A stretch of DNA of 27,841 bases, taken from Elusimicrobiota bacterium. GTDB taxonomy: Bacteria; Elusimicrobiota; Elusimicrobia; UBA1565. Every line of letters starts with the position of its first letter. The stretch's first letter is position 1. Positions 1 through 27,580 of the stretch are shown piece after piece. The DNA is taken from NCBI GenBank assembly GCA_043819795.1, contig JBDREN010000040.1:1-27841 (forward strand). The letters run 5' to 3'. A program made the position numbers and the translations under genes. The notes beneath the pieces are model-generated. The model made no database searches and was not told the origin of the DNA. It was given only the letters and a program-made list of their open reading frames with translations.

Positions 1-2076
1 GCTCAAGGCGTATGCGTCGTGCGTCGAGCCGATGGAGATCGAGTGGCCGGTCCCGCGCATGAGCTTGGGAGTCGTGGCCGTCGACGCGTGGAGCTGCGCG
101 GAGTAGTCCAAGGTCAGCGTGCTTCCCAAGAGCGGGTAGTCGCCCCAGACGCGGACCGTGCCCGTGTCGAAGTCCTGGTTGTAGGACAAGAGGTAGTTGC
201 CTTCGCGGTTGAAGCCGGCCGTGGAGATGCCGACCGCCGGGTTGATCCGGGCGGCTTTCAGGATGAGGTCCTCGCTCTTGGAGGCGTTGAAAAATACCTC
301 GGCCGTTGTGTTCGCGGCGGCGGCGCCGGTCTGGTCGTAGCCGAGGCTGCCGCCCGCGAACGTGGTCGTGGAGGAGCCGTCGAGATAGAGGCCGTAGCGC
401 GAGTTGGAGTAGGAGCGGTTCGCGGCCAGGGCGCTGTCGAAGGTCGCGCCGCTCAGCCAGATGCCCTCGAAAAAGTTCGAGTAGGCGTTGTTGGAGACCA
501 GCGAGGCGCCGTGGGAGTCCATCACGGCGATGCCGGTGTCCGAGTTGTCGTGCGCGTCGTTGGAGACCAGGGTGTTGTCGTCGGAGTAGGCGGTGAGCAG
601 GATGCCGTAGAACGTGTTGGAGTAGGACTCGTTAGCGTCCAGCGTGTTGTTGGCGGAGCTGTCGAGCCGGATGCCGGCCTCGCCGTTGTCGTAGAGGGTG
701 TTGCCGCTCAGGGAGTTGTAGGCGGCGCTGTCCAAAAAGACGCCCTCGTAGCCGTTGGAGTAGCAGGTGTTCGAGCCCAGCGTGGTGCCGGAGGAGGCGA
801 GGATGTTGATGCCGTCGTCCCCGTTGGAGTGGGCGTCGTTGGAGCTCAGGATGTTGCCGGAGGAGCTCTGGACGTGGAAGCCGTCGTTCGCGTTGTCGTG
901 GGAATTGTTGCCGGTCAAGGTATTCCGGCCGGAGGAGCCCTTGAGGTAGACGCCCACGTCGTCGTTGTTGTGCGCGTCGTTGTCGGTGAAGGCGTTGTCG
1001 GATGAGCCTGTCACCCAGAGGCCCTCGTAGTTGTTGGAGTAGGAATGGTTCGAGGCCACGACGTTGCCGGAGGAGGCGTTGAGCTCGATGCCGTCGTCGC
1101 TGTTGGCGTATACGCTGTTGGCGCTCAAGGTGCTGTTGGAGACGCCCTGCAGATGGATGCCGTCGTTGTCGCTCGAGTAGACGTTGTTGGCGGCCAGCGT
1201 GATGTTCTCGGACCCGTCGACGTAGATCCCGTAGGAGCCGCCGCGGACCGTGCAGCTGGAGACGGTCCCCCGGACATCGGAGCCGTCGAAGGTGATCCCG
1301 TACTTGGAGGCGGCGTTCGCGCCCAGATCGGCGAACTCGCCGTAGGCCAGGCTGAAGCTGGTCGCGTTGCGGGCCAGGTTGCGGATGTAGGCCGTGTTGT
1401 TCGACGTGTCCGTCCCGGAGGACCTGACGACCACGTTGCGCGTCAGGTTGGCCACGACGATCGGGGTGGTGCTGGTGAGGGCGCGTCCGTTGGTGATGCC
1501 TACGGCCCAGTCGACGCTCAGGGTGGCGCCGCCGGTGATGGCCGTGACGACTCTTTCCTCGGTCGCGCCCGGCCCGGTGCCGGTGGTCGGACCTATGGTG
1601 ATGGCGTCTCCCGCGGTCCAGGCGGTGGCGCTGGAAGCGGCGATGCTCAGCTGCGTCCCGCTCGCGGCGATGCCGGCCAGGGCGAAGCCGTATGGCGACT
1701 TGGTGGCTCCGCGGACCGTGAAATCGCCTCCGTCCTGGACGATGAGGCCGTACTGCCCGGCTGTCTGGCCGTAGGCCAGCACGAGCTGGGCGGTCGTGCC
1801 CGTGGGAATGGGATCGGCCTCGGTCCCCATGTCCAGGTGGCCGCCCGCCGCCACCGTGAGGTCGCCCTGGACCAACGTGAAGCTCGACTGCCCCACCCGG
1901 CTGAACTTGAGGGTGCCCGACACGGTGGTGGTGGACGCCGTGGCGGTGGTGATGTCGACGGTCACAGTGTGGCCGTCGGCGATGACGACCTCGTCGCTAA
2001 CGGTGGGGATCGTGCCGCAGGTCCAGGTGGCCGCGTCCGACCAAGGCCCGCTCTGGACGCTGACGACCGGATCGCA
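1..2076 (-). repeat. Module 2 (cut by the window edge): G8-like domain plus 13 beta-helix rungs
   Basis: Begins CDPVVSVQSGPWSDAATW. The scaffold is close to module 1 (GGHLDMGTEADPIP, YIRNLARNATSFSL, YNQDFDTGTVR, MRGTGHSISI). Rungs lie at ~1233-330. Confidence 0.85.
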
Positions 2077-5000
2077 GACCTGCCAGAGGACCTTGCCGTT
2101 GGGGTCATCGTCGTGGTCCTCCCCCCAGAGCGCGCCGCTCTCTCTGGTGAAGGTCCAGCTCAGGCTCGAGTCGCCGCCCTCCACGCGCACGTTGTGGGCG
2201 GAGTCGAAGCCGTGCGAGGAGCGCGAGAGCCCGAAGCTCACATCGTAGAAGGTGGCCAGGGAGGTGAGGTCCCTGGCGGTGATATAGGCGTTGGTCCCGG
2301 AGGCGAGGCCCATGTAGTCGAAGGTGGTGGTCGTGATGGAGACCCCGGCCGAGCCCGAGAGCTGGATGCCTTCCGGGTCCATGTTCGTCATCGATGAGTA
2401 CTCGGCGGTGAATGCGCCCGAGTCCACGAAGGTGTAGTAGGTGCTCCCGGCGAGCATGTCCACCAAAGTGTGCGTGCCGTCCACGCCCTTGAGCACGATG
2501 CCCGCGTCGGTGTCAGCAGTGATCTTCGAGCGTCCGTCGCGGAAGCCGTCGGCGGAGCGTCCGAACAGAAGACGCTTTTGCACGTTCTGGTCGCCCGCGG
2601 CCGCGATGAGGGCGAAGTCCACCCGGTCTCCCTCCGCGGGCGTGCCGCCGTCTGTGAAGTCCACGGTGACCTGGGGGGCGGAGTTCGGGATAGCGAGGTC
2701 GGTCGGGGAGCCCGTAAAGGCGGTGACCATGTCCACGCCGGAGGAGGAGCCGTCCACGTGCCACTCGCCGTCTCGGTATTCGAACGTGATGAGCTGGCTC
2801 AGGGCGTTGGCGTCGTTGGTCGAGTCGATGGAGATCGAATGCCCGGTCCCGCGCATGACCTTCGGCGTCGTAGCCGTTGAGGCGTAGAGCTGCGTGGAGT
2901 AGTCCAGCGTGAGCGTGCTTGCCGAGATGGCGTAGTCGCCCCAGATTCGGACCGTGCCCGTGTCGAAGTCCTGGTTGTAGGAGATCAGGTAGTTGCCCTC
3001 GCGGTCGAGTGCGGTCGTGGAGATCCCGACGGCCGGATTGATGCGCGCGCCTTTGAGCGTGAGGTCCTCGCTGAAGCCGGGATAGAAGCGTACTTCGGCC
3101 TCGGCGTTGGGGAGGTCGTTGCCGTCGGAGTCGTAGCCCACGTTGCCTCCGACGAGAGTGGTGCCGAAGGTGTTCCGGATGTAGACGCCGTAGAGCCCCT
3201 GAGAGAAGATGTCGTTCGCGATCAGGGTATTGCCGGTGGAGTCTTGGAAGGAGAGGCCGATGGTCCCGTTCGAATAGATGTTGTTCGCGGTCAAGGTGTT
3301 GCTGGAGGAGGCGTTGATGCGGATGCCGTACCATCGGTCCGAATAACTGTTGTTCTCGGTCAAGGTGTTTTCGTGCGAGGAGACCCATAGGTAGATCCCC
3401 CCGCTCATGTTCGAGTAAGTGTTGTTCTCGGCCAAGGTGTTGTTGGGGGAGGAGGATTGCAGGAGAATGCCGTAGCCACCCTGGGCGTAGGCGTTGTTCT
3501 CGATCAGGGTGTTGTTGGCGGAGGAGTCGAGAAGGATGCCGGTGTATCCGTTCGCATAGCTGTTGTTCGCGGTCAAGGTGTTGCCGGAGGCGCCGCTGAG
3601 CTGGATTCCGCTGGTCGAGTGCGAGTAGAGGTTGTTCGCGGTCAGGGTGTTGTCGGAGGTCCCGTTCAGAAAGACGCCGTATCGGCCGTTGCGCACGGTG
3701 GAGCTGGAGATTGAGCCCCGGGTCCCCGCCCCGTCGAAGGTGATGCCGTACTTGCTCGTGGAGTTCGCTCCGAGGTAGGCGAACTCCCCGTGTTCCAGGC
3801 TGAAGCTGGTCGCGTTCCGGGCCAGGTTCCGGATATAGGCCGTGTTGCCGGACGTGTCCGTGCCCGAGGACCGGACCAGCACGTTCCGCGTGAGGTTCGC
3901 CACGACGATGGGGCTTGTGTCGGTCAGGACGCGGGCGGTCGAGAGTCCCACGGACCATGAAATGGTCAATGGGTCCGTCCCGGCGATGCCGTCGATTACC
4001 CGCTCCTCGACCTCGCTCGGGCCGAATGCGTTCGTGGGCCCGATCGTGATCGTGTCGCCCACGGCCCAGGCCGTGGCGCTGGAGGCGGCGATGTCCAGCT
4101 CCGTTCCGCCCGCGTCGATGCTGGCGAGCGCGTAGCCGTAGGGCGACTTGGTCGCGCCGCGGACCGTGAAGCCGCCTCCGTCCTGCACGATCAGGCCGTA
4201 TTGCCCAGCCACCGTCCCTGAGGCGAGGACGAGATGCGCGGTGGTTCCCGAGGGGATGGGATCGGCCTCGGTACCCATGTCCAGGTGGCCTCCCGCCTCG
4301 ACCGTAATGTCGCCGCCGACGAGGGTCAGACTCGAATGGCTGACCCGGCTGAACTTGAGCGTCCCCAAGACGGTCGTGGTCGAGGCGGTCGCCGTTGTTA
4401 TGTCCACCGTGACGGTGTGCCCCGTTTCGATCGTCAGCGGGCTGCAGGTGGTCGGGCGAAAACCGCTGGACCAAGTCCCGGAATCGGACCAGGACCCGGT
4501 CTGCACGCTCGCGACGGGATCGCAGGGATCCTGGATGTAGAAGCTCGCCTCCGCGCTCCAGGTGCCGCGAGCCAGGCCCGCGTCGATGGATCGGACCCGG
4601 AAGTAATACGTCGTGCTTGTCTGAATGGCTCCGCCGACCGCATCGGGCTCCGTGCTGATGAAGACCCCGTGCTTGAGGCCGCCGTCCCCGGGCCAGGTCT
4701 TGTAGGCCGGACGCGGATAATGGCCCAACAGCGGCGAGCCGTTCGCCCAGGTCAACGTGAAGGATGAGGGGGAGAGGATCCTAAGCTCGTCGCCCGAAAG
4801 GTTTATGGAACCGGTCGCCACCGCCAGGGCGTAGTAGACGCTCTCAGTGGAGCCGTTGTTGTCGTGGTCCGCCGCGTCCCACTTGAAGGTGAGCGTGCTG
4901 AAATCGGCGTCGTACTCGAAGGAGGCGGAAAGCCCGCCGGGGGCCGTGGGAGCGGTGTTCGAGCTGGGGAATACGCCCCTGTAGACTCGGTGGTTGGTGG

Positions 5001-8000
5001 TCGTGCTCACGACCCCCATATCCAGGTTCCCGTCATCGTCGAAATCGCCCCAGGCGACGCCCCAGGTGCTTTCCGCCTCGGTGCTGACCCGGACCGAGGC
5101 GAACGTCGCGTCGCCGTTGTTGCGATAGACGCGGTTGACGTCGCTCCAGTTGCCGACCGCGATATCCGGATACCCGTCGCCGTCGAAATCCCCCGAGGCG
5201 ACGCTATTGGTGTTCTCGCCCTCCGGGCTCGTCCATACGGACGTGAACGTGTCGTTCCCGTCGTTGCGATAGACGCGATTGGCCTGGCTGTTGTAATTGC
5301 CCGCCGCGAGATCCAGATCCCCGTCATTGTCGAAATCTCCCCAAGCCACGCTGCGGGTGTCTTCCGACTCGCCGCTCTCCCAGGCCGTAGTGAACGTCCA
5401 GTCCCCGTTGTTGCGAAAGACGCGGTTGACGTCCCCGTGATTGCCCACAGCCATATCCAGATCCCCGTCGTTGTCGTAGTCCCCCCAGGCGACGCTTCTG
5501 GTGTTTATCGACGCGGGGCTGGTCCAGACCGAGGCGAACGCCCCGTCCCCGTTGTTGCGATATACCCGGTTGGCTTGGCCCTCATTGACCGCCGCGAGAT
5601 CCAGATACCCATCGTTGTCGAAATCCCCCCAAGCGACCATATGGGTGGCCTCCGCCTCGGAGCTGTTCCAGGCCGACGTGAACGTCCCGCCCCTGTCGTT
5701 GCGGTAGACCCGGTTGGTCTCCCCGACACCGCTTCCGTCGTTCGCCACCGCAAGGTCGAGATCTCCGTCGTTGTCGTAATCCCCCCAGGCGACGCCGGTG
5801 GTGTACTCCGTCTCGGCGCTTGTCCAGACGGACGTAAAAGTCCCGTCCCCGTTGTTGCGATAGATCTCGTTGGCGGTGGACGTATAGTTCCCGACCGCCA
5901 GATCCAGGTCTCCGTCGTTGTCGTAATCCCCCCAAGCGACCCCGATGGTGTCCTCGGTTCCGGCGCTGGTCCACACCGAGGTCCAGCCGTAGGTCCACGT
6001 GGAGCCCGCCGCGACGTAGTTCGCCCCGTCGTCCCAGTTGAGGCTCCCGACCCGGAAGTAGTAGGTCGCCCCCATGGCCAGCCCGGAGACCGTCAGCGTG
6101 CTCAGCTCCACGTTCGGCGTGGAGGAGGAATAGACCGTGCCGGTGAAGTCGCTCGAGGTGGAGGCCTGCAGGACATAGCCCTCGGCCGTGGAAGTGGAGC
6201 CTTCCTGCGCGGCCGTCGGCAACGGGAGCCAATTGACCGTCACGCTTGTAAGGGAAACCCCCTCGAAATCGGCGCCCGAGACCTCGTTGGCCAAAGTGGA
6301 GGTCGAGGCCGAGGCGCCCGCCGGCCCCGCGCCGCAGGTGCCCTGTCCCTTGACGAGCAGTTCCTGCTCGGTGTTCGGCGGCACCGCTTCGAGGATGAAC
6401 GGAGGAGCGCTCACGTTGGCGATGGGCGTGCCCGTGTCGGTGGCGTAGTAGACGTTGTAGGAGTCGGCTTCGGTGATGAGCGACCAGGTCCAACTGATCG
6501 ATGAGATGCCCAAAGTCGTCGGCGACATCGCCGACGAGCCCTCCACCAGGCTGCCGCAGCCGTGCACCCAGACCTTGCCGCTGCCGAAGGTGTTGTTCGG
6601 GACCGCCCCGGCCGCCAGGACCTTGGAGTCCGCGCGCGCCGTGGCCGCGAGCGCGTCCTCGACCTCCTGCGGGGTCTGCGTCGAATCGTCCTGAAGCCTG
6701 AGGGCGATGAGTCCGGCCAAGACCGGCGCGGCCGCGCTGGTGCCGCTCGCGTGGTAGTGGCGGCCGTCGCGGGAGATATAGACCGCGCCCACCGTGGCGT
6801 CGTTCGACATCGAGGAGCTCACCCACTCGCCCGGGGCTGCGAAATCGGGCTTGGTCCGCCCGTCCCGGGTGGGGCCGCGGCCGCTGGAGCCGGCTATGTC
6901 ACCCAGCAGCCCCGCGGTGCAGATCGTCGTGTCGGTCGTCTCGCCGCCCGCGTCGGTCCGCCAATCGCGCTTGCTGCAGAACGACGCGACCGAGACGACG
7001 TTGTCCGCCACGGCCGGCGAGCCCAGCGTGGACGCGGTGTCCACGTGAGTGGTGAAGCTCGCGTAATTGACGTCGAAGATCCAGCCGTGGAGCTTGCCGC
7101 TGCCGCCGTTGACGGTGCGGGTGAACTTGACGTACCAGTACTGGTAGTCGATGCTGGGATTCTGGTAGATCTTGACCTTGATCTGCTTGTCGCCGCTCGG
7201 GTGGGAGTTGGTCCCGTTCCAGATCGAGATGGCCGTGGAGTCGATGAGGCTGTCTATCACGTCGGTGCCCGAGCTGGCGGTCACCGTATCATCCACCGAT
7301 GAGAACTCGTCCGTGGACACCGAGGCCGTGTACGCGTCGCCGGTGTCGGCCCAGAACTCGACATCGATCCAGTTGTACGCGGTATGGATGTCGATCCAGA
7401 AGGCGTCCGTGCCGCTCGCGGCGACGGTCGTGGAGGCGTGGATCCCGTTGTCATGATCGTTGCCCATGGCCACGACCACCGGGGTGCTGGCGGCGATGGT
7501 GTTCAGCTGCTGCTCGAAGCTGCGCGTGCCGTCGTGGGCCCCGACCTGGGCGGTCACGGCCAAGTTGATGACCGCGGGCTTGCCGAGGGCCGCCGCCTTG
7601 CCGATGATGTAGTTGACGCCGTCGATGAGGTCGGTGTCGTCATAGTCGGTTTTGACCATGATGATGTCGGCGGCCGGGGCCATGCCGGTGAAGGTGCCGG
7701 CGGGCAGGTCCCCGTCGGTGTCGCTGCCGTCGCCGGCCGCGATGCCGGCCAGGTGCGTGCCGTGGCCGCTTGTGTCCGTCTGGAGCACGACCCCCGCCGG
7801 GGAGCCGTCGATCTCATCGTCGATCTGGGCCTGGGTGTATTCGGCGCCGTAGCCGTAGCCGGACGGGAAGGGCCCCCCCGTGTGGGAGCTGATCGTCTGG
7901 TCCCAGATGTAGAGGATCCTGGTCTGGCCCCCGGCGTTGATGAAGTCCTCGTGCGTGTAGTCGATGCCGGTGTCCACCAATCCGATGACCACCCCCGCGC

Positions 8001-8484
8001 CGTCCCTGGAGCCGAAGCTGGGATAGCTCGAGTCCACCACCCCGCGATAGAGACCCGAGGTCACGGTGGTCGAGCGGACCACGTCCAGGGCCGGCCCGTA
8101 GCGGACCGCCGCCTCCGCGTACTCCAGGTCCGGGTCGGCCTCCAGCGCGTCGAGGTGGGAGAACGGCATCTCCGCGGTCACGATGCGGCCGTTCATGGCC
8201 CCGAAGCGCGCGCCGGGATAGCGGGCGGCCAGGTCCCGGCGCTTCACGCCGGGGCGAAGGCGCAGGAAGACCTTCACCGCTTGCACTCGCTTTCCGGCCT
8301 GGCCGGGAGGGCGGAGCCGGCCCTTGGAGCGCTCCGTCCCGGAGCCGGACCTGAGCTCCCGCAGGCGGGGGGCGAACTTGCGAGCCGCGGCGCGGACTTC
8401 CGCGGAAAGAAGCGGAAGGATCAGCGCCGCGATCGCGAGCAGCCGCCCGAGCCGCGCCCACGCTCTCGTCCGCGCCCCGTTCAC
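1..8484 (-). CDS. Giant secreted multidomain protein (>=2828 aa, 3' end beyond the window): signal peptide, S8 subtilase, FN3-like, FG-GAP propeller, FN3-like, tandem G8-like/beta-helix modules
   Basis: Manual translation from GTG 8484 (MNGARTRAWARLGRLLAIAALILPLLSAEVRA..., a signal peptide) stays open to position 1 (...MRGTGHSISIGSTHDAYALS). The track lists no stop-terminated ORF in this frame. The long + frame-1 ORFs (19, 1045, 4864, 6562, 7384) are its antisense shadows. The start overlaps the stop of ORF 8481..8738 (GTGA). Confidence 0.93.
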   Translation of the reverse strand, partial: MNGARTRAWARLGRLLAIAALILPLLSAEVRAAARKFAPRLRELRSGSGTERSKGRLRPPGQAGKRVQAVKVFLRLRPGVKRRDLAARYPGARFGAMNGRIVTAEMPFSHLDALEADPDLEYAEAAVRYGPALDVVRSTTVTSGLYRGVVDSSYPSFGSRDGAGVVIGLVDTGIDYTHEDFINAGGQTRILYIWDQTISSHTGGPFPSGYGYGAEYTQAQIDDEIDGSPAGVVLQTDTSGHGTHLAGIAAGDGSDTDGDLPAGTFTGMAPAADIIMVKTDYDDTDLIDGVNYIIGKAAALGKPAVINLAVTAQVGAHDGTRSFEQQLNTIAASTPVVVAMGNDHDNGIHASTTVAASGTDAFWIDIHTAYNWIDVEFWADTGDAYTASVSTDEFSSVDDTVTASSGTDVIDSLIDSTAISIWNGTNSHPSGDKQIKVKIYQNPSIDYQYWYVKFTRTVNGGSGKLHGWIFDVNYASFTTHVDTASTLGSPAVADNVVSVASFCSKRDWRTDAGGETTDTTICTAGLLGDIAGSSGRGPTRDGRTKPDFAAPGEWVSSSMSNDATVGAVYISRDGRHYHASGTSAAAPVLAGLIALRLQDDSTQTPQEVEDALAATARADSKVLAAGAVPNNTFGSGKVWVHGCGSLVEGSSAMSPTTLGISSISWTWSLITEADSYNVYYATDTGTPIANVSAPPFILEAVPPNTEQELLVKGQGTCGAGPAGASASTSTLANEVSGADFEGVSLTSVTVNWLPLPTAAQEGSTSTAEGYVLQASTSSDFTGTVYSSSTPNVELSTLTVSGLAMGATYYFRVGSLNWDDGANYVAAGSTWTYGWTSVWTSAGTEDTIGVAWGDYDNDGDLDLAVGNYTSTANEIYRNNGDGTFTSVWTSAETEYTTGVAWGDYDNDGDLDLAVANDGSGVGETNRVYRNDRGGTFTSAWNSSEAEATHMVAWGDFDNDGYLDLAAVNEGQANRVYRNNGDGAFASVWTSPASINTRSVAWGDYDNDGDLDMAVGNHGDVNRVFRNNGDWTFTTAWESGESEDTRSVAWGDFDNDGDLDLAAGNYNSQANRVYRNDGNDTFTSVWTSPEGENTNSVASGDFDGDGYPDIAVGNWSDVNRVYRNNGDATFASVRVSTEAESTWGVAWGDFDDDGNLDMGVVSTTTNHRVYRGVFPSSNTAPTAPGGLSASFEYDADFSTLTFKWDAADHDNNGSTESVYYALAVATGSINLSGDELRILSPSSFTLTWANGSPLLGHYPRPAYKTWPGDGGLKHGVFISTEPDAVGGAIQTSTTYYFRVRSIDAGLARGTWSAEASFYIQDPCDPVASVQTGSWSDSGTWSSGFRPTTCSPLTIETGHTVTVDITTATASTTTVLGTLKFSRVSHSSLTLVGGDITVEAGGHLDMGTEADPIPSGTTAHLVLASGTVAGQYGLIVQDGGGFTVRGATKSPYGYALASIDAGGTELDIAASSATAWAVGDTITIGPTNAFGPSEVEERVIDGIAGTDPLTISWSVGLSTARVLTDTSPIVVANLTRNVLVRSSGTDTSGNTAYIRNLARNATSFSLEHGEFAYLGANSTSKYGITFDGAGTRGSISSSTVRNGRYGVFLNGTSDNTLTANNLYSHSTSGIQLSGASGNTLTANNSYANGYTGILLDSSANNTLIENNAYAQGGYGILLQSSSPNNTLAENNTYSNMSGGIYLWVSSHENTLTENNSYSDRWYGIRINASSSNTLTANNIYSNGTIGLSFQDSTGNTLIANDIFSQGLYGVYIRNTFGTTLVGGNVGYDSDGNDLPNAEAEVRFYPGFSEDLTLKGARINPAVGISTTALDREGNYLISYNQDFDTGTVRIWGDYAISASTLTLDYSTQLYASTATTPKVMRGTGHSISIDSTNDANALSQLITFEYRDGEWHVDGSSSGVDMVTAFTGSPTDLAIPNSAPQVTVDFTDGGTPAEGDRVDFALIAAAGDQNVQKRLLFGRSADGFRDGRSKITADTDAGIVLKGVDGTHTLVDMLAGSTYYTFVDSGAFTAEYSSMTNMDPEGIQLSGSAGVSITTTTFDYMGLASGTNAYITARDLTSLATFYDVSFGLSRSSHGFDSAHNVRVEGGDSSLSWTFTRESGALWGEDHDDDPNGKVLWQVCDPVVSVQSGPWSDAATWTCGTIPTVSDEVVIADGHTVTVDITTATASTTTVSGTLKFSRVGQSSFTLVQGDLTVAAGGHLDMGTEADPIPTGTTAQLVLAYGQTAGQYGLIVQDGGDFTVRGATKSPYGFALAGIAASGTQLSIAASSATAWTAGDAITIGPTTGTGPGATEERVVTAITGGATLSVDWAVGITNGRALTSTTPIVVANLTRNVVVRSSGTDTSNNTAYIRNLARNATSFSLAYGEFADLGANAASKYGITFDGSDVRGTVSSCTVRGGSYGIYVDGSENITLAANNVYSSDNDGIHLQGVSNSTLSANSVYANSDDGIELNASSGNVVASNHSYSNNYEGLWVTGSSDNAFTDNDAHNNDDVGVYLKGSSGRNTLTGNNSHDNANDGFHVQSSSGNILSSNDAHSNGDDGINILASSGTTLGSNTCYSNGYEGVFLDSAAYNSLSGNTLYDNGEAGIRLDSSANNTLDANESYSNTFYGILLTAYSDDNTLVSNDAHDNSDTGIAVMDSHGASLVSNNAYSNFFEGIWLSGATFDSALAANRSYSNSRYGLYLDGSSTTTFAGGSLGYDQTGAAAANTTAEVFFNASKSEDLILKAARINPAVGISTAGFNREGNYLLSYNQDFDTGTVRVWGDYPLLGSTLTLDYSAQLHASTATTPKLMRGTGHSISIGSTHDAYALS
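2077..4524 (-). repeat. Module 1 (816 aa): G8-like domain, 8 beta-helix (PbH1-like) rungs, C-terminal beta region
   Basis: Begins CDPVASVQTGSWSDSGTW. Contains GHTVTVDITTATASTTTVLGTLKF, GGHLDMGTEADPIP and ANLTRNVLVRS, then ~23-aa GIxLxxSxxNTLxxNNxY rungs at ~3680-3130. Offset 2448 nt from the module 2 start. Confidence 0.85.
4975..5985 (-). repeat. Seven FG-GAP/VCBS-like repeats (probable 7-bladed beta-propeller) within the giant ORF
   Basis: Seven ~48-aa units of the form (W/S)GD(Y/F)DxDGxxDxAVxN...NRVYRN(N/D)GDGTF near 5930, 5790, 5630, 5485, 5340, 5195 and 5050. DxDxDG loops are typical Ca2+-binding motifs. Confidence 0.9.
6580..8010 (-). other. S8 subtilase catalytic domain (CspA/CspB-like, with an inserted beta-domain) within the giant ORF
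   Basis: Catalytic triad motifs: GAGVVIGLVDTGIDYTHEDF (Asp 7972-7974), DTSGHGTHLAGIAAG (His 7762-7764), SGTSAAAPVLAG (Ser 6736-6738). Also oxyanion VVAMGND and SGRGPTRDGRTKPDFAAPG. A ~120-aa insertion (~7440-7070) follows the GN motif, and a prodomain-length segment lies at ~8390-8020. Confidence 0.92.
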
Positions 8485-8738
8485 CGGAGCACCCCGATCA
8501 TCCCGGAGTCCGCCCGGCTCTTGTGGAAGCGCAGGCCAAGCGGCAGGCATCGCGTCGAGCCCGCCGACCAGCCGCCGGTCCGCGCGCTTGTGATTTGTGC
8601 CCACGAAGCCGAGGGGCCCGCCAACAGGACCGCGAGAGCGAGGCACAACGGGGCCAAGAATGCCGGAAGGGAGGGGAATGCGGCGGACTTTGGGGGCAGG
8701 CCGCGTCTCGGCGATTCGGGGGCTTGCTGGCCGGTCAT
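8481..8738 (-). pseudogene. Small ORF (85 aa): signal peptide plus a truncated G8-module start; possible relic N-terminus or leader
   Basis: Hydrophobic FLAPLCLALAVLLAGPSASWA/Q with a signal-peptidase-like site, then ITSARTGGWSAGST resembling the module starts, then unrelated sequence. The stop overlaps the giant gene start. Confidence 0.45.
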
Positions 8739-8996
8739 GGGCGTAATTACCGCTCAATAATACGCTTACCTTATAGGCGCGAAATCTTTGTTACGGCGGT
8801 GCGAAGTCGCGGCGAGTTGTTGTTTCTCGGGAAATCCGCGTCGAATCCGGCGCCCGCCCCTTTGTTTTTTCTTCGTTTTTTCGGGTCCGGTTCCTTCCGC
8901 CGCGTCGGGTCGGGCGCTTTCCTGGTCTTTTTTCCCCGCGTCTGATTCGTGCTGTTGCGAGAGGATCGTCGGGGCAGGCAAAAACGACAGAAGTCC

Positions 8997-9051: not shown

Positions 9052-9510
9052 ATGGGAAGACCAGAGGTCGCGGGAAGCGGGGCCGCCGTGCGGATGCTGT
9101 GGCGCGAGATCCGGCGCTCGAGCGAATCGCGCTTCGTCCAGCGGGCGCACGCCGTGCTGGCGGTGTGCCGCGGGTTCAACTGCAGGGAGACGGCGGCGGT
9201 CCTCGGGCGGAGCCCCCGGGCGGTCGAGTACTGGGTCAGGCGTTTTCACGACGAGGGAATCGCGGGCCTGCGCGAGCGTCCGCGCTCCGGCCGGTCGGGG
9301 GCGTTGACGCGGGAACAGAGGGAGTTCCTGCGCCTCGAGCTGGCCGGAGAGTCCGGGGCGGCCGTCCCCGCGCGGGGACGCTGGACCGGGTCGCGCCTCC
9401 GGCGGCATCTTACGGAGAGATACGGAGTGCGGCTGGGCGTCCGGCAGTGCCAGCGCCTGCTCGGGCGCCTGCGAGGGGCCCCCGGAGCCGGTATTATGGG
9501 GCGCAGTTAG
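9052..9510 (+). CDS. Winged helix-turn-helix protein resembling the IS630-family transposase N-terminus, without a DDE domain
   Basis: RAHAVL...ETAAVLGRSPRAVEYWVRRFHDEGIAGLRERPRSGR...WTGSRLRRHLTERYGVRLGVRQCQRLL is the typical IS630 orfA pattern. Good RBS. Only ~90 nt separate it from the next gene. Confidence 0.8.
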   Translation: MGRPEVAGSGAAVRMLWREIRRSSESRFVQRAHAVLAVCRGFNCRETAAVLGRSPRAVEYWVRRFHDEGIAGLRERPRSGRSGALTREQREFLRLELAGESGAAVPARGRWTGSRLRRHLTERYGVRLGVRQCQRLLGRLRGAPGAGIMGRS

Positions 9511-9533
9511 ATAAGACGTATTGGGGTGAGGCG

Positions 9534-9562
9534 TTGCCTCCGGCGACTTCGACTGCTAGAAT
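9534..9562 (+). promoter_or_regulatory. Sigma70-type promoter (extended -10) of the foldase gene
   Basis: TTGCCT (9534-9539), 17 nt, TAGAAT (9557-9562) preceded by TGn. Confidence 0.6.
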
Positions 9563-9597
9563 GGCCCGGAGACTACCTGGTTGCCAAGGAGAGACCG

Positions 9598-10461
9598 ATG
9601 AAGGGAATGCTTTTCGTGCTCGTGGGGACGTTATTGGGGGCTGGAGCGGTTTCGGCCGAGGCCAAGGCCAAGGACCCGGTCATCGTGAAGGTGGATGGGG
9701 CCGAGATCCGGAAGAGCGAGGTGTATCAGCGGCTTTGGGACATCCAGGGGACGACGGTGCTGGAGCAGATGATCGACCGGCACCTGATCGAGCGGGACGC
9801 CAAGAAGCGGAAGATCGTCGCGGATGAGAGTGATGTCGAGCGGCGCATGGACGCGATCGGGCAGCAGCTTCCGGAGGGGACTTCTCTGGAGCAGAAGCTA
9901 AACGAGTCCGGGCTGACTCTGGAGAAGCTGCGCAAGGAGATCACCTTCGAGGTGCTGCGGGACGGCTTGGTGGTCGAGGCCGCGGAGATCGCGGTCTCCT
10001 CGACCGAGGTGCGCGCCGCCTACGAGGCGAACCGGAACCGGCTGGGGAACCCCGAGGCGGTCCGGCTCCGGCACATCCTCGTGCAGACGGAGCGGGAGGC
10101 GGACGACCTGCTGATCGCCCTCAAGGCCGGAGCCGATTTCGAGAAGCTCGCGTCGGCGAAATCCCTCAACGCGGACACCCGGGACAAGGGGGGGGACCTG
10201 GGCTTCATCACGCCGGGGATGCTGCGTCCCGAGATCGAGAAGGCGGTCTGGAAGCTCAGGGCGGGCGAGCTCAGCCCGATCGTCGACACCGGCCAAGGCT
10301 TTCACATCTTCCAGGCAGTGGAGCGGCGCGAGGGGAAGCCCGCCGAGTTCGAGGAGGTCTCCGCGGACCTCCACCGCGCGATCCGCAACAGGAAGATCGC
10401 CGCGGCGCTGCCGGGCGTCGTTAAGGACCTGCGGGCCAAGGCGAAGATTGAGCGGGAGTAG
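9598..10461 (+). CDS. PpiC-type peptidyl-prolyl isomerase / PrsA-SurA-like foldase, exported (287 aa)
   Basis: AAGGAG RBS before ATG 9598. Signal peptide MKGMLFVLVGTLLGAGAVSA. Parvulin motifs VRLRHILV, FEKLA...S, KGGDLGF, GELSPIVDTGQGFHI, with a SurA_N-like helical region. Confidence 0.9.
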   Translation: MKGMLFVLVGTLLGAGAVSAEAKAKDPVIVKVDGAEIRKSEVYQRLWDIQGTTVLEQMIDRHLIERDAKKRKIVADESDVERRMDAIGQQLPEGTSLEQKLNESGLTLEKLRKEITFEVLRDGLVVEAAEIAVSSTEVRAAYEANRNRLGNPEAVRLRHILVQTEREADDLLIALKAGADFEKLASAKSLNADTRDKGGDLGFITPGMLRPEIEKAVWKLRAGELSPIVDTGQGFHIFQAVERREGKPAEFEEVSADLHRAIRNRKIAAALPGVVKDLRAKAKIERE

Positions 10462-11267: not shown

Positions 11268-12434
11268 ATGCCCGACGAGCGCGACGGCGCTTCCGATACG
11301 CAGAAGGGCCCGCCGGCCGGCGGCGCCGGCCTCGGCCTCGGCAGCGGGGCGGAGGAGCAAAAGGCCGCCGGCCGGAAGCCCAAGAGCCGGCGCCAGAGCC
11401 CTTCGCGCCTGAGGCCGGACCGCCGGCCCATCGACTGGGAAAACATCAGCGACGAGGAGCTTCTTCGCAAGCGCATTTGCGACCTCCCTCTGAGCATCGA
11501 GGGCACGGAGCTTGAGGAGCGCATCCAGACCGTCTACGGGGAGCTGGAGGCCAGGGGGATCCTCTTCCGCCCCGAGGTCTATCTCGGGGACGAGTGGTTC
11601 TCGCCGGAGGGCGATCCGGTCATCTCGATCCCGTTCTACCTCGCCCATCCGCGGCTCATCAGGCTCCAGCGCAGCCGCGTCCTCGAGGCCGAGGGCGAGA
11701 CGCGCGCCTGGTTCCTGCAGCTGCTGCGCCACGAGATGGGACACGCGCTCATGCACGCCTACGGCCTGCATAGGTCCCGGGGCTACAGGAAGGTCTTCGG
11801 CAAGAGTTCGCAGCCGTATCCCGAGAAGGTCCGCACGCGGCCCTACAGCCGGAAGTACGTCCGCCACCTCGAGGACTGGTACGCGCAGAGCCATCCGGAC
11901 GAGGATTTCTCCGAGACCTTCGCCGTCTGGCTGACGCCGGACATCGACTGGCACGAGCAGTACGCCGGCTGGGGGGCGCTCAAGAAGCTGGAGCTCGTGG
12001 ATCGGATGATGTCCGGCATTCGAGGCAGGAAGCCCAAGAAGCGGACGGGGCCGAAGTACCGCCGTCTTTCCAAGATACGGATGACCATCGCCCAGTACCA
12101 TAGGATCACGCGCAAGGCGCTCGAGGAGGACTTCCCGGACTTCTTCGACGGGGACCTGAAGGCCATCTTCAGTCCCGAGGGGGGGGCGGACGGCGAGCGG
12201 GCCGCGAAGTTCCTCCGGCGCCATCGCCGGATGCTGGTGCGCGGCATCGCGCAGTGGACCGGGGAGAAGCGCTACACCATCCACCACCTCGTCACGCGTT
12301 TCGCCGAGCGCTGCGCGGAGCTCGGACTGTACGTCCATCTTCCGGAGTCGGAGACGCTGGCCCAGGCCAGCGCCTGCCTGACGGCGATGGCCGCGCACTA
12401 TTTCCTGACGGGCAAGTTCAAGAGGCGTCTCTAA
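11268..12434 (+). CDS. Putative zinc-binding metallopeptidase (HExxH zincin, Peptidase_Mx-like)
   Basis: LLRHEMGHA (HExxH) and WYAQSHPDEDFSETFAVWL, which supplies a likely third-ligand Glu. No signal peptide. Low-complexity N-terminal ~50 aa. Confidence 0.8.
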   Translation: MPDERDGASDTQKGPPAGGAGLGLGSGAEEQKAAGRKPKSRRQSPSRLRPDRRPIDWENISDEELLRKRICDLPLSIEGTELEERIQTVYGELEARGILFRPEVYLGDEWFSPEGDPVISIPFYLAHPRLIRLQRSRVLEAEGETRAWFLQLLRHEMGHALMHAYGLHRSRGYRKVFGKSSQPYPEKVRTRPYSRKYVRHLEDWYAQSHPDEDFSETFAVWLTPDIDWHEQYAGWGALKKLELVDRMMSGIRGRKPKKRTGPKYRRLSKIRMTIAQYHRITRKALEEDFPDFFDGDLKAIFSPEGGADGERAAKFLRRHRRMLVRGIAQWTGEKRYTIHHLVTRFAERCAELGLYVHLPESETLAQASACLTAMAAHYFLTGKFKRRL

Positions 12435-13444
12435 TGGGAAAGAGCCTGAAGGTCCTGACGCTGTTCGACAGCCACTCGGCGAAGCCGCGCGGGCATGACT
12501 TCGCCGAAGAGTTCGAGAAGGACGAGTGGAAGTCCGAGCGGCACGTCGTCGAGGGGCTTCGCTCCCTCGGGCACGATGTGCGCATGCTCGGCCTCTTCGA
12601 CGACGTGGCCCTCCTGATCGAGGACGTCAAGGAGTTCGCGCCCGACGTGGTGTTCAACCTCATGGAGGAGTTCCATCAGGACCCCTGCCTGGTCGCGAAC
12701 GTGGCCGCCGTGCTCGAGATGCTCGGCGTCGCGTACACCGGCTCGACGCCGCTGGGCCTGCGGCTCTGCAAGGATAAGGCCTTGGCGAAGATGATCCTCG
12801 TGCACCACGGCGTCCCGACCCCGCCGTTCCAGGTCTTCGAGCGCGACCGCGTGATCAAGAGGAGCTCGGGGGTGAAGCTCCCGATCGTCGTCAAGCCGAA
12901 GGTCGAGGACGCCTCCTACGGCATCGCCAAGGCGTCGGTGGTCGAGGACGACGAGGCTCTGGAGGAGCGAGTTCGCTTCGTCCACGAGAGCACGGGGCAG
13001 GCCGCCTTGGCCGAGGAGTACGTGGACGGGCGCGAGGTCTACGTGAGCATCCTCGGCGCCCACCGCCTGCGGGTCTTCCCGCTGCGGGAGGTGAAGTTCG
13101 GGCAGCTCGCCGAGGGGGACAACCTGCCGATCGCCACCTACAAGGTGAAGTGGGACGCCGCCTACCGCAAGAAGCGCGGGATCGAGTACGTCTACGTGGA
13201 GGATATGGAGGAGGCGCTGGTCAAGAAGATCGAGGACATCTCCCGCGCTTCTTACCGGGCCCTCGAGCTCGGGGGCTACGCCCGCGTCGATGTGCGCATG
13301 GACCAGGAGAGTCGGCCCTACGTGCTCGAGGTGAACCCCAACCCCTATCTCGCCAGGGACGAGGACTACGCGCAGTCGGCCGAGCGCGGGGGCCTGCCCT
13401 GGGAGAAGCTCCTGCAGGCCATCATCAACGAGGCCGTCGAATGA
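12434..13444 (+). CDS. D-Ala-D-Ala ligase-like ATP-grasp enzyme, non-canonical (336 aa)
   Basis: ATG 12434 overlaps the upstream TAA (TAATG). Motifs PDVVFNL, GVAYTGS, DKALAK, PIVVKPKVEDASYGI, EEYVDGRE, GYARVDVRM, LEVNPNPYL. Confidence 0.85.
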   Translation: MGKSLKVLTLFDSHSAKPRGHDFAEEFEKDEWKSERHVVEGLRSLGHDVRMLGLFDDVALLIEDVKEFAPDVVFNLMEEFHQDPCLVANVAAVLEMLGVAYTGSTPLGLRLCKDKALAKMILVHHGVPTPPFQVFERDRVIKRSSGVKLPIVVKPKVEDASYGIAKASVVEDDEALEERVRFVHESTGQAALAEEYVDGREVYVSILGAHRLRVFPLREVKFGQLAEGDNLPIATYKVKWDAAYRKKRGIEYVYVEDMEEALVKKIEDISRASYRALELGGYARVDVRMDQESRPYVLEVNPNPYLARDEDYAQSAERGGLPWEKLLQAIINEAVE

Positions 13445-27493: not shown

Positions 27494-27580
27494 ACGGTGC
27501 CGGGCTTGACTTTTGGGAGTTATTGATCGCATTTGTGGCGTTCGCATGCAATAATTCCCAAAAGTCAAGCCCGGCACCGT
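27494..27580. repeat. 87-bp element with 32-bp inverted arms (REP/MITE-like hairpin)
   Basis: ACGGTGCCGGGCTTGACTTTTGGGAGTTATTG (27494-27525) matches the reverse complement of 27549-27580 at 31/32 positions, with a 23-nt loop. Confidence 0.88.

Follow-up and report, generated by a model that had tools for sequence, protein, structure and literature searches.

The window analysed here, 27,841 nt in length, is the whole of one contig (C40) from an Elusimicrobiota genome of 4.99 Mb in 241 contigs (90% complete). Its minus strand holds a single frame (P0001), running from position 8484 down to position 1 over 2,828 codons without a stop, a length expected by chance at about 1e-28 from base composition. 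Third-position GC content is of the coding type throughout (GC3 0.91 overall, 0.84-0.94 in each section), and we read 1..8484 as the 5' part of a giant gene. The frame does not close within the window, since the contig itself ends there. The initial annotation had described a frame of at least 2,828 codons missed by the ORF track. An identical 2,828-residue protein is already recorded in a public protein collection, and the frame was therefore not overlooked by gene callers in general. Across the genome, 21 coding-like frames of at least 3,000 aa make up 7.4% of genome length, and the accessible text of published work on the phylum describes Elusimicrobiota as rich in huge proteins that lack functional assignment (PMC11573180).

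The giant frame stays open upstream to 8790, and two starts were considered. TTG at 8757 was rejected, as it would give no signal peptide and a low GC3. GTG at 8484 is the better start because it shares bases with the stop codon that ends a coding-like frame upstream and because the N-terminus that follows it aligns with the signal peptide of a paralogue. The upstream frame (8481..8738, minus strand, 85 codons) begins with a signal peptide, goes on with the initial ~16 residues of a G8 module and continues as unrelated sequence. Its TGA and the start codon of the giant gene overlap as GTGA. GC3 is 0.83 in this frame and 0.66 in the extension of the giant frame that overlaps it. A six-frame search of the genome with its start motif gave two matches, one here and one at the true start of a sister G8 gene on contig C76, and on these matches the 85-codon frame is the orphaned start of a G8-headed gene. 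A search for sigma-70 promoter matches upstream of the giant gene found none.

Divergent from this upstream region, a plus-strand frame (9052-9510, 152 aa) with a helix-turn-helix resembles the N-terminal part of an IS630 transposase (E 3e-18, below cut-off) and is possibly a scar of mobile-element activity. The gene at 9526-10461 (plus strand), adjoining the giant gene, encodes a prolyl isomerase of the PpiC/SurA type that could assist the folding of exported cargo; no conserved linkage between the two genes was seen, and a synteny test of the contig join based on the isomerase gene gave nothing. Further along the plus strand, 11268-13444 holds a putative zinc metallopeptidase (Peptidase_Mx) and then a D-Ala-D-Ala-ligase-like ATP-grasp protein. 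Downstream of ksgA lies a 32-nt inverted repeat (27494-27580, 97% complementary), and the right end of the contig is a repeat common to C7, C39, C41, C46, C178 and C209.

A Pfam scan of the 2,828 residues found Peptidase_S8, FG-GAP, two G8 domains and Beta_helix/NosD, with fn3 just below its cut-off; all features that follow are on the minus strand. Residues 1 to ~32 (8389..8484) form a predicted Sec signal peptide, judged from the sequence rather than by a signal-peptide predictor: the N-terminus is basic and hydrophobic, residues 12-30 are the most hydrophobic stretch of the protein, and the alignment with the paralogue on contig C71 runs from residue 10. No second hydrophobic segment was found in P0001. 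A likely pro-domain (residues ~33-130, 8095..8388) is conserved in that stand-alone paralogue, its role being suggested by subtilase architecture. The S8 subtilase itself (6550..8094; PF00082 at 93.6 bits, above cut-off) is of the Csp type, with an inserted domain, and carries its triad in order, D171 (7972-7974), H241 (7762-7764) and S583 (6736-6738), together with the oxyanion residue N342 (7459-7461). It is followed by two FN3-like domains (residues ~650-835, 5980..6537), by seven FG-GAP repeats predicted to form a seven-bladed propeller (residues ~845-1175, 4960..5952), with seven copies of the motif W/S-G-D-x-D-x-D-G-x-x-D at residues 851-1145, and by a domain that trails FG-GAP propellers in this protein family (residues ~1180-1320, 4525..4947). 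The remainder consists of two G8/beta-helix modules of ~820 aa. Module 1 (2068..4524, 819 aa) comprises G8, an inserted beta-sandwich, a parallel beta-helix and a C-terminal beta region, while module 2 (1..2076) has a longer helix and is cut by the contig end. The signal peptide, intact triad, FN3-like domains, seven FG-GAP repeats and at least two large G8-like modules that had been read from the sequence at the outset are thus all upheld.

The break at the contig end is caused by a repeat. An identical 141-nt sequence (1..141 of the window) terminates both C40 and C110, a contig of 2.7 kb, and the assembly stops at this site because the two-copy repeat lies inside the gene. No contig in the assembly starts with the terminal node of C40, and neither reads nor contigs span the gap from C40 to C110 or C19. 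Run X1, in which the strain is represented by fragments of 150-375 nt (depth 2-5) and which contrasts with runs X2 and X3, where it is nearly absent, yielded a contig that continues in frame for 95 nt past the edge and carries the C110 letter at position 142. The leftward extension to a stop codon that had been proposed thus succeeded for 95 nt, in which no stop was reached. The sequence of the giant gene was not found in the RNA runs searched.

Contig C19 begins open inside the same module type and then encodes a further six complete modules, four propellers of seven repeats each and an extended series of FN3 domains; exact 141-nt overlaps chain it to C66 and C220. In a tree, the C40, C110 and C19 modules group together and are separated, with support 100/100, from the modules of a second G8 gene (C76/C89/C141); the second C40 module, the C110 module and the first C19 module also have an unusually long helix in common. 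In the bin the sole unassigned start for such a module is on C40 and the sole unassigned end on C19. Complete relatives (G001:C33, 6,006 aa; G010:C119, 6,776 aa; G003:C68) keep the order head, propeller, G8 module, FN3, propellers, FN3 and C-terminal sorting domain (CTD). We consider it very likely from these comparisons that the giant gene continues through C110 and C19/C66. Adding the piece lengths and the gaps taken from module register, its total length would come to 13,700 aa without C110 and 14,700 aa with it (minimal estimate), and further pieces may be missing, since the genome is incomplete. In full, the order would be S8, two FN3 domains, a propeller and nine G8/beta-helix modules, then FN3 and another four propellers, and finally over 25 FN3 domains ahead of a type-B-like C-terminal sorting domain. 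The second G8-module giant gene, on C76/C89/C141, ends in an FN3 run and a type-A-like CTD and has a PorV gene of its own; within it, C89 represents a tandem loop that collapsed in assembly, its two ends being one 141-nt sequence. A join of C40 to C89/C141 was rejected, as an exact overlap links these contigs to C76 and their modules fall in the separate clade.

The ~820-aa module occurs at full length in 10 of the 16 genomes of the family and in one genome of another family, and all 11 full-coverage homologues with a taxon name are from Elusimicrobiota. Structure prediction, a step that the initial annotation had proposed, was run on module 1 and on a two-module junction. The module (819 aa, modelled from 24 aligned copies) folds at pLDDT 92.1 and pTM 0.89, with G8 (PF10162, above cut-off) continuous with the parallel beta-helix. 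Its best fold match is TMEM2 (PDB 8C6I; Foldseek E 2.5e-12), at Z 28.2 and rmsd 3.0 over 501 aligned residues with 15% identity; AlgG, AlgE and NosD come within about 1 Z unit of this match, over ~310 residues, and the comparison barely covers residues beyond ~655. A PDB sequence search with the module gave no sequence-level match to TMEM2. The model thus shows the TMEM2-like G8 and beta-helix fold that had been proposed from the sequence. Neighbouring modules abut through a linker of few residues, and the junction model (pTM 0.55) has low confidence at the junction itself, which is compatible with a hinge but may stem from the truncated construct instead.

What the modules do is suggested by how they vary. 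Among the copies in this genome the main helix is 199-382 aa long (338-382 aa in the second module of C40, the module of C110 and the first of C19, versus 199-269 aa in the others), and among the 24 aligned modules it spans 128-317 aa, a 2.5-fold variation. Between module positions 279 and 493, no D, E, K, R or H is conserved at 75% in these 24 modules, although variable rung numbers blur the alignment and a catalytic rung could therefore be hidden. Conserved charged residues occur outside the main helix, and the invariant residues of the module are mostly Gly and Trp but include R60, D82, D157, R213, D633, K650, D736 and R768. In a beta-helix enzyme, both the register of the rungs and the catalytic cluster would be expected to be preserved. 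Because the helix varies in length and, at this threshold, shows no conserved charged or histidine residues, unlike such an enzyme, the best reading of the modules is as non-catalytic spacers or binders, and the polysaccharide degradation suggested at the outset is not borne out.

TMEM2 itself is reportedly active in one study. In the accessible text of a separate study it had no activity and no assignable active site, whereas the active sites of beta-helix enzymes map to the concave face (PMC10206443). This bears on the idea of a multi-enzyme attack machine, in which each beta-helix module would be a polysaccharide lyase, hydrolase or epimerase and, together with the protease, would attack matrix or the walls of prey. 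The nearest solved folds do include AlgG/AlgE epimerases, tailspikes and lyases, Tyr is the commonest residue on the outward helix face (49/199 pattern-picked positions, a noisy count), and the giant proteins of Omnitrophota have been linked to predation in the accessible part of 10.1101/2023.11.21.568195. Yet the non-enzymic NosD scores as well as the enzymes do, and together with the precedent of TMEM2 and the variable main helix, in which no acidic or basic residue was seen to be conserved, this makes joint enzymatic attack unlikely.

The far end of the inferred gene points to how its product may be exported. At the end of the C66 frame, whose join to C40 is the probable one described above, PF13585 (CHU_C) scores 29.1, over its cut-off of 27, and TIGR04131 24.8, under its cut-off of 35. 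Directly behind this CTD lies a PorV-family barrel fused to TPRs (PorV_fam E 2e-18, PorP_fam E 3e-5, both under cut-off). The pairing is genome-wide: there are 29 PorV-family loci (32 matches), and 21 of 24 CTD-ending frames, defined by profiles built in this analysis, have a PorV-family gene within 600 nt downstream, with two frames sharing one barrel. Type-B-like tails adjoin their own barrel subtype, and the type-A-like CTDs among these pairs likewise have their own barrels. A SprA/Sov-like gene (G000:C134:12856-18522, plus strand, 1,889 aa, E 2e-15, below cut-off) is found once per genome in 39 of the 41 members of the order, and every one of these matches falls below the family cut-off. 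The SprA, PorV and type B CTD assignments at the giant locus thus score below NCBIfam cut-offs. GldL, GldM and GldN were found in none of four Elusimicrobiota genomes (90-100% complete) by a search in which a Flavobacteriales control was positive for all three and which distant homologues could escape. In loci of relatives (L077, L081-L089), a small stand-alone CTD protein (120-150 aa) often lies between cargo and barrel gene, and two such proteins are encoded in this genome, on C158 and C172.

Behind the barrel with its TPRs come a HAMP kinase and a FliF-FliG fusion, which lies two genes behind the barrel on C220. Orthologues of the barrel and of FliF-FliG lie at most 4 kb apart in 14 of 40 relatives, and a type-B-like CTD gene was upstream in all 11 such loci examined. 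The genome has five FliG_C copies (C218:40218, C220:2753, C56:15234, C214:7084, C237:7763). MotA lies near three of them, and three come after a giant CTD gene with its barrel; a search for flagellin found none. This conserved arrangement hints at a link between barrel and motor. The giant protein could, for example, be a moving adhesin, a SprB-like filament that is driven along the envelope or drawn into it by a flagellum-derived FliF-FliG/MotAB motor in place of GldLM. However, no MotA was found at the C220 locus, unlike at three other FliG copies, the FliF-FliG gene there sits among two-component genes and may signal, and the argument depends on the inferred C40-C19 join, so that we regard a moving adhesin as quite unlikely. 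Near the FliF-FliG cassette of one relative (L080:5787-8186, minus strand) is a 799-aa, tail-fibre-like protein with a collagen repeat and a Peptidase_S74 chaperone domain.

The protease head has a different history from the rest of the protein. The best solved relatives of the S8 domain are the clostridial Csp subtilases, inserted domain included, and a scan of the genome collection with S8 gave distant matches only. In a tree of 16 rows including both C71 and P0001 (L001, P0082, P0083, P0088, P0093 and P0099 were left out), S8 is sister to the copy on C71, with support 99/98. That copy belongs to a stand-alone S8-FN3-CTD gene present in 10 of the 16 family genomes, and the two domains share 66% of their protein and 76% of their DNA sequence, with triad and signal peptide retained in the giant. 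In relatives the domain is likewise carried by FN3 stalks, the frames being between 1,345 and 3,494 aa long. G8 and S8 occur together only in P0001 among 76 module matches (1,435-4,095 aa) and again only there among 29 matches to long S8 proteins (1,555-4,949 aa), the best ~8,000 candidates having been scored in each case. The heads that precede the first propeller in relatives differ, and include a glycine-rich region, carboxypeptidase-regulatory-like repeats and Kelch propellers.

Thus, the S8 head is probably a late, lineage-specific and swappable copy of the stand-alone S8-FN3 gene. It would have arisen by duplication of that gene and recombination into the head slot, and in the simplest history an S8-headed cassette would have recombined into a G8-headed gene just after its promoter and initial codons. 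The old start of that gene would remain as the short upstream frame, which probably provides translational coupling to the new one. The protease may be under relaxed selection, because dN/dS (NG86) between S8 and C71 is ~0.6, with dS probably underestimated at GC3 0.9, and because the residue after the catalytic Ser is Ala in P0001 where 17 of 17 other alignment rows (C71 not among them) have Met or Gln.

The initial annotation had proposed that the protease might process the chain. Such a polyprotein, cut by S8 into free modules after export, would fit the intact triad at the N-terminus, and the accessible text of 10.1101/2023.11.21.568195 proposes the same for S8 and C39 domains of Omnitrophota giants. 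We consider it very improbable: no other module-bearing protein found carries S8, the abutting modules offer few linker residues, and any modules freed before export would lose the single C-terminal sorting signal. That the gene is instead a recent non-adaptive fusion or is decaying, with the S8 head a passenger on a non-functional giant, is hardly credible, for although the fusion is seen once, dN/dS is as high as stated, an orphaned start and an IS630-type fragment lie upstream and the C19 assembly has one frameshift, the frame runs for 2,828 codons without a stop, S8 has kept triad and signal peptide at its present distance from its source, and the frameshift is missing from a 342-nt contig of run X1.

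Our preferred reading, held with moderate confidence, is a giant surface-anchored adhesive stalk of G8/beta-helix modules with a Csp-like protease at its predicted distal tip and T9SS-like export. Sec would carry the protein to the periplasm, from which a SprA-like barrel would take it across the outer membrane; the C-terminus would then be held by the protein's own PorV/PorP-like barrel, as SprB is by SprF. The modules and propellers would bind and space, through the Tyr-rich helix face and the Ca-type FG-GAP loops. A beta-helix rises 4.8 A per rung and an FN3 domain spans ~3.5 nm. With these dimensions the stalk, which would be hinged rather than one rigid helix, might reach on the order of 200 nm, a rough estimate. 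At the tip, S8 would mature by removing its own pro-domain and could then cleave proteins on whatever the tip touches, such as biofilm matrix or neighbouring cells. An exported surface protein with a role in attachment, as first suggested, is supported. We add a broader conjecture, which is rather unlikely as a whole: that Elusimicrobiota use T9SS-derived export and display without the Gld motor, with a SprA-like pore and one PorV-like barrel per cargo, energised or moved by a FliF-FliG/MotAB motor that lacks a flagellum, and that the filament of ~14,000 residues is a contact weapon whose module stalk grips other cells and brings a swappable enzymatic tip to them, here a protease.

The locus gives one giant Elusimicrobiota protein an anatomy and a putative export route. 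It comprises a previously undescribed bacterial repeat of ~820 residues on the TMEM2/fibrocystin fold, a CTD that goes with a barrel of its own, and a head slot seen after its content was exchanged, where the former start can still be recognised. In the literature we found no description of the module, of a T9SS in Elusimicrobiota or of this export arrangement, though genome work on groundwater Elusimicrobia may mention them. Reviews, in their accessible text, confine the T9SS to the Fibrobacteres-Chlorobi-Bacteroidota group (PMC11205867). If the export reading is true, type IX-like secretion reaches beyond that group and works without the Gld motor, and the minimal requirements of the pathway would therefore be testable in Flavobacterium. 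Work on fibrocystin could also benefit, with single modules as a soluble bacterial model of its G8/beta-helix fold.

As first suspected, we found no characterised protein with the same architecture. Like the clostridial Csp proteases (CspB 4I0W, CspA/CspC; NF040809), the S8 catalytic domain has an insertion of ~130 residues, but it scores far below their cut-offs (NF040809 106/1250 bits, NF040808 86/675 bits), and it is predicted to be exported and is fused to a stalk, with no spore role. The Omnitrophota giants (Archaeovorins, dockerin type) are, in the accessible text of 10.1101/2023.11.21.568195, likewise more than 10,000 aa long, with an N-terminal peptidase (S8 in some) and beta-helical regions, and come from uncultured groundwater or biofilm lineages. 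Further features ascribed to them there were not seen here, namely numerous transmembrane segments, SecA-like domains, glycosyl transferases and hydrolases, and a helix of the antiparallel kind: Pfam found no transmembrane, SecA-like, glycosyl transferase or hydrolase domains in P0001, and C19, inspected by eye and with local profiles, consists of modules, propellers and FN3 domains. Compared with TMEM2, CEMIP and fibrocystin, the inferred full gene has nine tandem copies instead of one or two, with variable helix length; the module has 819 aa against 1,270 in the TMEM2 ectodomain, and P0001 has no Pfam match to the lectin-like GG domain and no membrane anchor.

The closest parallel is with SprB-SprF and other pairs of type B CTD and PorP in the Bacteroidota T9SS, where, in the accessible text, the cargo needs and stays bound to its cognate PorP/SprF-like barrel (PMC9143113, PMC12618676). 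The giant repetitive cargo, the predicted Sec signal and, given the probable join to C66, the CHU_C-type CTD with its adjoining putative cognate barrel gene resemble that system, and the genome has a SprA-like gene, below cut-off. The system described here differs in its phylum, in barrels that score better as PorV/PorQ than as PorP, in type-A-like CTDs with barrels of their own, and in a giant cargo that, unlike SprB, is built of G8/beta-helix modules and a protease head. Because the Gld motor components were not found, and neither were the lectin-like domain and anchor of TMEM2, we place the giant protein outside any described family; by analogy, it most likely works like the SprB-type tethered surface proteins.
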